From Escherichia coli (GTDB lineage Bacteria > Pseudomonadota > Gammaproteobacteria > Enterobacterales > Enterobacteriaceae), in assembly GCF_003019035.1 (NCBI RefSeq), contig NZ_CP027448.1: a stretch of DNA of 64,000 nucleotides; one strand, written 5' to 3'. Below the pieces are notes generated by a model. It saw only the letters and a list, made by a program, of their open reading frames with translations. It did no database searches and was not told where the DNA came from. Made by a program: the position numbers and the translations under genes. Below, in pieces: positions 58,190-61,831 of the stretch. How positions within the stretch are numbered: position 1 is the stretch's first letter; each line of letters begins with the position of its first letter.

Positions 58190-58996
58190 TCAGGATAATT
58201 GTTTCAGCATCACAACCGCATCAGATTCCGGCATCGCAAACTGCACCCGGTGCCGTGCAGCCACATCCAGTGCAAACACCTTCGTGTAGACCTCCGTTGA
58301 GCTGATGGACTTATGCCCCATCAGGCTCTGCAGGACCTTCAGCGGTATACCGGCATACAGCATGTGCATCGCATAGGAATGGCGGAACGTATGTGGTGTG
58401 ACCGGAACAGAGAACGTCACACCGTCAGCAGCAGCGGCGGCAACCGCCTCCCCAATCCAGGTCCTGACCGTTCTGTCCGTCACTTCCCAGATCCGCGCTT
58501 TCTCTGTCCTGCCTGTTCGTTTATTACGCCGTTCCATGGGGATTTTCAGTGTGGCCACCATCGTCTGCAGCTGGCTGACGTACCAGGCATCAGAGAGCGG
58601 AACCAGCCGGTGAGTCTGCTGACCGGCGGGCATTCTTCCTGCCGTCCTGGCTGCTTTTTCGGTCCGTTGTTTCAGGGTCGCAAGCTGCACAAACGGATAC
58701 GGAGGCGCGAGCGAAAAATCCCCCCGCGTCAGCGCCAGTGCTTCATTAATGCGCGCACCGGTGTTCCACAGTGTGGCCAGCAGCATCTTGCGGCGCAGAT
58801 CCGGGACGTAATGGAGCAGGGCACTCACTTCCGGAGCCAGCAGATATTTCGGCAGTTCATCATGGACCATCGACATCTGGCGAAGTGCCAGAGCTGCCGG
58901 ATAATCAATGACAACAGGAAGTTGTGGAGACTGTCCGGCAGAATACACTGCCGGTACCATGGCTGCAGACTGGCTGTGTATAACGGAGCCTGACAT
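58190..58996 (-). CDS. resD: ResD-like tyrosine recombinase (multimer resolvase, 268 aa)
   Basis: ...HTFRHSYAMHMLYAGIPLKVLQSLMGHKSISSTEVYTKV...; downstream of ccdAB as in F. Confidence 0.82.
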   Translation of the reverse strand: MSGSVIHSQSAAMVPAVYSAGQSPQLPVVIDYPAALALRQMSMVHDELPKYLLAPEVSALLHYVPDLRRKMLLATLWNTGARINEALALTRGDFSLAPPYPFVQLATLKQRTEKAARTAGRMPAGQQTHRLVPLSDAWYVSQLQTMVATLKIPMERRNKRTGRTEKARIWEVTDRTVRTWIGEAVAAAAADGVTFSVPVTPHTFRHSYAMHMLYAGIPLKVLQSLMGHKSISSTEVYTKVFALDVAARHRVQFAMPESDAVVMLKQLS

Positions 58997-59522
<526 letters not shown>

Positions 59523-61831
59523 AATGCACCTCATCTTACATACTCTCTGTACATCATTAAGTATACACCAGTATTACGCTATAACATGCCTCCGGAAACG
59601 GAATATTGTTATCTGGCTATTATTAACACAATCATCAATAACTGACCTAAAAAGTGATCATGGAAATAATAACCGTCAATGTAGTAACCATGATAAATTA
59701 CAGGATGACTGTTTTTCTATGATCCGATTTTTATGGGATTCAGGATTTTCCGGAAGTGAATCAGGATCAGTGAATAAGCGAAGCGATCTTTTCTGCCGCT
59801 GATGACTGACTCGGGAACACGGGAAGAAACACAACATAGAGCGTCATGTCAGCGAAGCGTGACACCACATCCTGTAAAAGCGGACCAGCGGGCGGCAGCG
59901 AAGGATCTGCGGATCCGGAACTACCTTTTTTCGGATCTTATTAGTGTAGAAGAACGATTGTTGCGGTGAGGGGATTATTGCTTAGGAAGCAAAATTCAAA
60001 ACTGACTAAGCCAGAAATAGCAACAACAAGATAAGGAAATTTTCCCCCTCAGCCCCTGCATGCCGTGAGGGGGAGCAACTACCCAGCTACAGTTTTCATT
60101 TTATGATACGTCTTCACTAGGTAATACCTGTGAACTGACAGAGTCTTTATGGAGTGTATGGCGGACCTAAATTTGATCCCTGAAAACTGTCAGCGCTGCG
60201 AGGACGAAGAAAGTATTACGGCTAAAGCCGTAATACCTCCCCATCCAGCTTCAAGCTATGTAGAAACTTATGTGGGTAGAGCAGTCCCGACAGGGCAGTA
60301 CCGCATTGACAGGCCGTCAGGGCCGCTTACGAGCTTGTATGACAAGGGGGCCGTCTGGATATAGCGAATTATTGTACGGTAAGCCTTTTTTGAACACCTT
60401 ACCTATTGCTATAGAGGGAAACTCCTACGTTATACGCCGCTTTCAGGGGATTCGACCTTAATGAGACAACTCAAATATGATCGACAACTTAAACGCGATA
60501 GCTGCTGATAAAATCAATCCATTACGCGTTTCAATTGATTAAATAATGCACTTAATGTACAAAAATTTCCGATCTCAAAACTGAACCCTAAAGATACCAG
60601 GCATCTCCCCCAGGAAGCGCCCTCATGCGTTTTCCTGTTCCGCCTCTGCCACCTACCTTCTGTTTCATACTTGTTGTATTATTGTTTTTTGTTTTCAATC
60701 CCCAAGGAGACGTCGCTATATGACTGTGCGGGAGACAGAGGAAAACATTGAACAAATCTTCCCTGAGCTTTCGAACTTAATTGATATTATTAATAAATGG
60801 CTTTCCCATGGAAACATTGATCCCGAACTGGCACACTTCATCATTTATCTTCTTGATTACCTAACCACCACACACAAAAGCATATAAAAAATTTCCTTGC
60901 ACATCCATTTCTTTGCGAATATTATTATCCCCGCTGAATATGATTCAATATCGCACGCTACTCATCCATCCCTGGATAATGAGTACATAGGTTGAAGTTT
61001 CAACACCCCCACTACGGGGGTGTTTTTTTACCAATAAAAACAAATCACACCATCGCCATACCCTGTTTGCCAGACATTGATTGGTAAATATGCGTAACTC
61101 GCTATAATACAAAAAGAAAAATCAGAACCAGAAACTAGTTTCCAGATAAAAAACACCCTCCCGAAGGAGGGGACAGACACATTCATATTTCCCAAAACAG
61201 GAATTTTTATTTTTATGACGCATTAATGAAGTTACTTCATCTCCAGTAGATTAACTTCATTTAAAGTGGAGATCAATCATATTTATTACGACTCTAAACC
61301 ATTACAACAACCACAATAAGATATCACCTCAAATATAAAAGACAATTCTTACAAAAACATTCTGAAAACAAAAAAAATACAGATAAACACCAATAAAAAC
61401 AGAAAACTCCTACAAGATTAAAGATGGTAAAATAATATAGAACTGTTAGTCTAATGGAGAAGGCGCATCTAATTCAGAGCAATCTATTGCGAAGAATCAG
61501 AACAACAGTTATCCACAGATTCTGGGGATAACTGCAGAAAGAAGATGTGCAAGAAAAGTCAGCCCCCCGGGAAAGTATTCTTTCTGTTGGGAATCCAATC
61601 ACTATAGGATTCGCGAAGATGGTCAGTACCCGAGTAAAGTAGTTTACACTCTTACTGGCGCTGAACCGAAAAGGCAAAAAAGAAGTTCCAGGCCTGTATC
61701 TGACTAAAAGTGAAGACGCTAACTTCTGGCTATCGGTCCGCAAAACCGTGGTGTGGATGGTCTGACTGTTTTCCCATAAGGCAAACCAGCCTTTGAACAC
61801 ATAAAATATTTTTCTGGACTTTTATATAAAT

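Follow-up and report, generated by a model that had tools for sequence, protein, structure and literature searches.

The 55-codon ORF and the adjacent uptR gene

In the window (the whole 64-kb stretch of DNA analysed), two small elements follow each other on the plus strand, namely an ORF of 55 codons at 60720-60887 and the gene of the small RNA UptR (Rfam RF02568) at 60933-61024. The ORF starts with ATG at 60720, ends with a stop codon at 60885-60887 and is preceded by a Shine-Dalgarno (SD) sequence AAGGAGA, read directly on the plus strand at 60704-60710, 9 nt 5' of the start codon. The deduced protein of 55 amino acid residues (MTVRETEENIEQIFPELSNLIDIINKWLSHGNIDPELAHFIIYLLDYLTTTHKSI) is acidic, is predicted to form a two-helix hairpin and is identical to WP_000218294.1 of plasmid F. 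The ribosome binding site, start codon, product and stop codon had all been given in the original prediction, and all were confirmed on the sequence.

The UptR covariance model matched over its full length (model positions 1-92 of 92), with 122.5 bits (gathering score 100; E ~1e-21, 1.3e-21) and agreement at 91 of 92 consensus positions; this was the single match in the Rfam scan of positions 59400-62000, and the fold z-score of the RNA was -3.2. The 3' helix of UptR is an intrinsic terminator on the plus strand (61002-61029), consisting of the hairpin AACACCCCC-ACTAC-GGGGGTGTT at 61002-61024, with a 9-bp GC-rich stem, and a T-run extending to 61029. The original prediction had assigned this hairpin and T-run to the ORF; both are present, but they are not simply the terminator of the ORF, as they form the 3' end of an RNA with a promoter-like site of its own. 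The hairpin is not attributable to chance, since the UptR match runs over the whole model and has this hairpin as its final helix; the terminator is that of an sRNA described earlier. UptR accounts for the hairpin part of the locus only and not for the ORF. The RNA was described by Guigueno and co-workers in 2001 (J Bacteriol 183:1147). In multicopy it reportedly suppresses the toxic effect of exported DsbA'-PhoA hybrids that cannot fold.

A sigma-70-like uptR promoter, TGCACA-16-TATTAT, was recognized by its match to the consensus at 60898-60925 on the plus strand, between the stop codon of the ORF and the hairpin, and transcription from it would begin some 7 nt further on, at 60933, the first position of the Rfam match. 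The small plasmid L028, of the ColE1 type described below, carries the counterpart TGCACA-16-TATCAT in the same arrangement, and the uptR terminator is also conserved there. From these consensus matches, uptR is predicted to be an independent transcription unit with its own promoter and terminator. No terminator was found in the window between the stop codon of the ORF and uptR, so that read-through from the ORF into uptR is expected, and a transcript of the ORF would meet the UptR hairpin as its first terminator.

The ORF had been described as unannotated, which holds for the nearest RefSeq record, p48B2a (99.5% identity, with nothing annotated at the ORF position), and for most PGAP records, but not for F itself, in whose record (NC_002483.1, 40140-40307, complementary strand) it is annotated as the hypothetical protein WP_000218294.1. 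The same 55 residues make up the UniRef entry A0A0J3V1Q5_ECOLX. The entry in F thus has an identical product at the equivalent locus, and is an unnamed database prediction without a family. The exact protein occurs on at least 1000 contigs, where it is named only "hypothetical" or "uncharacterized", and neither the peptide nor its accessions are mentioned in the searchable literature. The neighbours of the ORF differ between the two plasmids, being ccdA in the window and, on either side, pif and RepFIB in F. The reason is that window and F are homologous over a module of 1.6 kb (59922-61508) which occupies different backbone positions in the two.

Matches to the region 60400-61500, with identities of 95-99.5%, were obtained in 362 plasmids of PLSDB and in 365 complete genomes of E. 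coli, F being among them. Conservation in related plasmids was the point on which the original prediction was to be judged, and the ORF is indeed conserved, as 355 of 361 plasmids encode a protein with an identity of 99% or more. Taken alone, this near-identity carries little weight, since the entire stretch of DNA is young. Rare variants with missense changes, an in-frame indel, a frameshift, loss of the stop codon or truncation at a junction occur at low frequency, and the disrupted ones indicate that the gene is dispensable in some settings. Among the protein variants from metagenome and genome contigs, P0013-P0020 are independently truncated near residues 18, 25-27, 31 and 35-36, with unrelated sequence after each truncation, a pattern suggesting that junctions of insertions or rearrangements have arisen repeatedly within this AT-rich ORF.

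Relationship of the locus to ColE1-type plasmids

A word-based protein search recovered near-identical relatives of the ORF product only, whereas an exhaustive phmmer search of 1.84 billion representatives yielded one divergent homolog, P0021, of 63 residues and 67% identity (E = 1.7e-11). Its gene resides on plasmids of 4.5 kb from E. coli and Salmonella, which also harbour Rop, MobC/NikA-like, relaxase and MbeD genes and are therefore ColE1-type mobilizable plasmids. The similarity extends well beyond the ORF, since positions 60703-61373 of the window align with the ColE1-type plasmids at about 71% DNA identity. The alignment starts exactly at the SD, which is identical in both lineages: the stretch CAAGGAGAC recurs without change in the ColE1-type homologs, and clear homology sets in again at this very point. 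No lineages besides the F type and one ColE1 type were obtained with single-sequence and profile k-mer protein searches or with the exhaustive phmmer search, and none with tblastn and distant blastn of PLSDB or with a degenerate DNA scan of 100,044 species genomes. The lone hit of that scan was a chance match within an Ignavibacteriales gene.

The UptR-like RNA of the ColE1-type plasmids scored 34.8-35.3 bits (E about 0.01), under the gathering score, and its homology to UptR is supported by synteny together with a DNA identity of about 70%. Conservation across the lineages extends to the -10 element, to the single-stranded stretch ATTCAATATCGCACG and to the terminator; in the second hairpin the outer stem is kept and the inner stem has been rebuilt from different bases. 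Downstream of UptR, and convergent with it, lies a conserved non-coding block on the minus strand (61132-61373) with a strong intrinsic reverse-strand terminator (stem 61171-61156), which belongs to the same inherited module and is 75-77% identical to the ColE1-type plasmids L030 and L035; no conserved second ORF was found in it on either strand. Within this block, the minus strand of 61148-61300 may form a structured RNA, with a consensus fold of 41 pairs, 4 of which are changed on both sides, all of them in one hairpin (GAAGTTA..TAACTTC versus AAAGCTA..TAGCTTT). This segment, about 76% identical to the ColE1-type plasmids, had no Rfam match and no predicted promoter; it may represent a small RNA that has not been named, or else the structured 3' terminus of the former mob operon.

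The shared block is flanked by two pieces of a ColE1-type origin. The first, piece B (60589-60657, minus strand, 69 nt), derives from the RNA II primer region upstream of ori and is 84% identical to the ColE1-type plasmids L003 and L028-L035, where it occupies the equivalent place between rop and RNA I. The second, piece C (61505-61549, 45 nt), contains TTATCCACA and is 82-84% identical to L003, L029 and L030, in which it is positioned between rop and piece B. In the ColE1-type plasmids the order on the plus strand is rop, the DnaA-box segment C, the origin, the RNA II segment B and RNA I, followed by the SD and ORF, the UptR-like RNA, the reverse-strand terminator with the conserved block, and mob. 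In the window it is piece B, ORF, UptR, conserved block (61132-61373) and piece C, which is the order expected of a circular ColE1-type plasmid opened at its origin.

The small plasmids L003, L028 and L030 encode RNA I (Rfam 73.8 bits), whereas no RNA I match was obtained in positions 59400-62000 of the window at E values up to 1. Intact RNA II, its promoter, rop and mob are likewise absent from the window, which shares with the ColE1-type replicon just the 69-nt and 45-nt origin fragments on either side of the cassette of ORF and uptR, and thus has a relic and not a working replicon. A reading in which UptR would be RNA I from a ColE1-like relic and the ORF would lie antisense within RNA II was rejected, because the ColE1 similarity there is confined to 69 nt and the genuine RNA I is found elsewhere in the small plasmids.

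Judged from the sequence, positions 60589-61549 look like the decayed remnant of a ColE1-type plasmid integrated in an F-type plasmid. Such a plasmid would have been opened at its origin upon integration into an ancestor of the F-type plasmid, with subsequent loss of RNA II and RNA I from one flank and of mob and rop from the opposite flank, while the cassette of the 55-codon ORF and uptR would have survived almost unchanged. Its persistence through this decay is consistent with selection for the cassette. The ColE1-type fossil would account both for the stray origin fragments and for the joint inheritance of the ORF and uptR.

Other features were observed around the remnant. An element of about 248 bp (60345-60592), abutting piece B, occurs with the same sharp boundaries and 70-80% identity in about 4000 plasmids of many genera; its ends, GGGG...TAAG, are inverted and imperfect according to cross-matches to L004 and L005, and were not reported by the repeat search. 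It resembles a Tn3-family miniature inverted-repeat element of the TIME-like kind. No feature is assigned to the left end of the F-shared module (420 nt, 59922-60344); about 59956-60187 match, at 73%, a region annotated "hypothetical protein" in a different plasmid of E. coli, and two single-base indels that distinguish the window from F, at 60345 and 60396, speak against an intact gene. Just upstream of the module, resD, ccdB and ccdA of the F maintenance region are located on the minus strand at 58190-59534. On its other side, from 61832 onward, the plus strand carries a degraded autotransporter gene, which starts with a signal peptide but is broken into several frames and is annotated as a pseudogene in the nearest RefSeq record.

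Evidence for selection on the 55-codon frame

We consider it fairly probable that the locus is a decayed ColE1-type relic in an F-type plasmid which carries a genuine small-protein gene and, separately, uptR. The principal competing reading is that the ORF is not translated and constitutes a chance open frame in AT-rich DNA, travelling with uptR and preserved by recent descent together with constraint at the DNA or RNA level; we regard it as unlikely, though by no means negligible. In 2000 dinucleotide shuffles of the local 1587-bp module (GC 0.395), an ATG ORF of at least 55 codons was present in 78%, in 10% when a loose SD was required and in 4.8% with a strict SD, the last figure amounting to about two such ORFs per 64-kb window; the window itself has seven ATG ORFs of 55-90 residues with a strict SD. 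Taken alone, the ORF with its SD is only mildly unusual. An untranslated frame would also agree with the mostly missing PGAP calls, the disrupted variants and the orphan status of a protein without a family, as well as with the result of the promoter search, which predicted no sigma-70-like promoter 5' of the ORF in either the F-type or the ColE1-type lineage.

The substitution pattern speaks against an untranslated frame, both within the F lineage and between the lineages. The alignment within the F lineage comprised 25 copies, namely the window, F, p48B2a and 22 metagenome contigs recovered by a UptR-internal pattern. In these copies the 168 nt of the ORF have 2 variable columns, compared with 56 in 440 nt of adjacent sequence, distributed as 5 in the leader (62 nt), 10 in the ColE1 fragment (65 nt), 9 in the uptR promoter (45 nt), 5 in UptR (92 nt) and 27 in the next 176 nt. 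The ORF is therefore the least variable segment among the F-type copies, below UptR itself, and its two variable columns are a synonymous C/T at 60824 and the singleton T51A. In the most divergent F-type copy, L018, 46 differences were counted in 752 nt of flanking sequence and one, synonymous, in the 168-nt ORF (Poisson estimate, P ~4e-4).

Between the lineages the codon test was a single pairwise comparison, as the searches yielded only two lineages, and covered 47 gapless codons with 31 differences between the ORF and its ColE1-type homolog. These are distributed over codon positions 1, 2 and 3 as 6, 8 and 17. The Nei-Gojobori estimates in the ORF frame were pS 0.49 and pN 0.145, with an omega of about 0.20 (Fisher p 1.1e-4), whereas the remaining five frames gave omega values of 0.47-1.6, none of them significant. 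In the block encoding LAHFIIYLL four codons have changed, all synonymously and with zero replacements. When 31 substitutions were placed at random with the observed mix of transitions and transversions, at least 33 of 47 residues remained identical without a stop codon with a probability of P = 0.0016. Constraint at the DNA or RNA level does not yield such a frame-specific three-base pattern, and the apparent purifying selection on the ORF frame is the main evidence for protein coding.

The start codon position in the ColE1-type lineage speaks for an untranslated frame. The position of the ATG is occupied by ACG or ACA in all eight ColE1-type copies, which have no in-frame ATG, GTG or TTG past the upstream stop, and gene callers chose an ATC located 3 bases after AAGGAGA. 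In this lineage, either translation starts from a weak non-canonical codon or the gene was lost recently. On balance, the comparative pattern indicates that the ORF of the F-type plasmids is probably a real small gene under protein-level selection.

An extended -10-like motif, TGATATTAT, was observed within the ORF at 60782-60790 on the plus strand, in its most conserved nucleotide block. The ORF region could accordingly be read as mainly regulatory, or as a precursor segment, with this internal motif driving a longer UptR precursor irrespective of whether the peptide is made. The motif is identical in both lineages and its equivalent in L028 (3958-3985) scored as promoter-like, and the absence of a terminator between the ORF and uptR would allow such a transcript. 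This reading is nevertheless distinctly improbable, given that a coding signal is still obtained in the neutral simulation after removal of the promoter-like core (P = 0.0038), that the conserved promoter of UptR is itself placed correctly for the 92-nt RNA, and that the motif in the window lacks a matching -35 element and was not reported there by the promoter scan. It is scarcely credible that the ORF and UptR, although adjacent on a plasmid and co-inherited in both lineages, form a toxin-antitoxin-like or sRNA-target pair in which UptR binds the initiation region of the ORF, as UptR is encoded on the same strand without overlap, the predicted duplexes between UptR and the ORF mRNA are no better than shuffled controls in both lineages, the window contains no sequence complementary to the single-stranded stretch conserved in UptR, and the protein is acidic and soluble-looking and not a hydrophobic membrane peptide. 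A type I toxin-antitoxin system was rejected on the same features.

A decayed relic carrying a small-protein gene and a separate uptR remains the preferred reading. The ORF would be translated from the ATG at 60720 by means of AAGGAGA into a strongly acidic two-helix hairpin protein, and uptR, immediately downstream, would be transcribed from its own promoter and end in the 61002-61029 hairpin, at which the transcript of the ORF would also end after reading through uptR. Neither component is a new kind of element, since UptR is already public in Rfam and the ORF in F as a hypothetical protein, and the terminator has to be assigned to UptR instead of the ORF. The comparison of the two lineages is the first comparative evidence for protein-level selection on the 55-codon frame, and annotation pipelines that skip this ORF in most F-type plasmids therefore probably miss a real small gene.

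Features of the predicted protein

AlphaFold2 modelled the ORF product, a protein of roughly 6.4 kDa with a net charge of about -6 as calculated from the sequence, as a hairpin of two helices (residues 3-30 and 35-54) with a pLDDT of 78. Its sequence and predicted fold indicate an acidic, amphipathic and soluble-looking protein. Family searches gave no match in Pfam at E values up to 10, nothing credible in NCBIfam and no match in PHROGs, and the sole PADLOC match, DruH (E = 0.032, 12 bits), was obtained with one lineage only and is not credible. Neither Foldseek against the PDB (no match below E = 1) nor a sequence search of the PDB returned a relative.

We tentatively suggest, with low confidence, that the protein is a cytoplasmic accessory protein retained along with UptR because the two together are of benefit to the host or the plasmid, and not for a function in replication. 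UptR has, to our knowledge, been an orphan sRNA since 2001. If the protein were confirmed, it would offer a cheap experimental handle on the natural role of UptR in common F+ laboratory strains. A more specific proposal, which we consider rather improbable, is that the small protein and UptR constitute a functional pair, captured from a ColE1-type plasmid and kept for a benefit to the host, in which the protein would stabilise or sequester UptR, cooperate with it or share an envelope-stress pathway with it. If true, this would provide a natural context for UptR and a new small protein on the best-studied plasmid.

In several respects the protein resembles Rop/Rom (63 residues), which is of similar size, acidic and encoded on ColE1-type plasmids, and shares the predicted two-helix hairpin with a turn near residue 31. 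It differs in that there is no sequence relationship and that Rop/Rom is absent from the top 50 Foldseek matches listed for the PDB; moreover, the ColE1-type small plasmids that encode the homolog also encode a genuine Rop. Membership of the Rop/Rom family (PF01815) was ruled out, there being no Pfam match at E values up to 10 and an hhalign probability of 0.13%. A linked tandem dimer, modelled with AlphaFold2 from the single sequence with a four-helix bundle in mind, reached a pLDDT of 59, lower than the 78 of the monomer.
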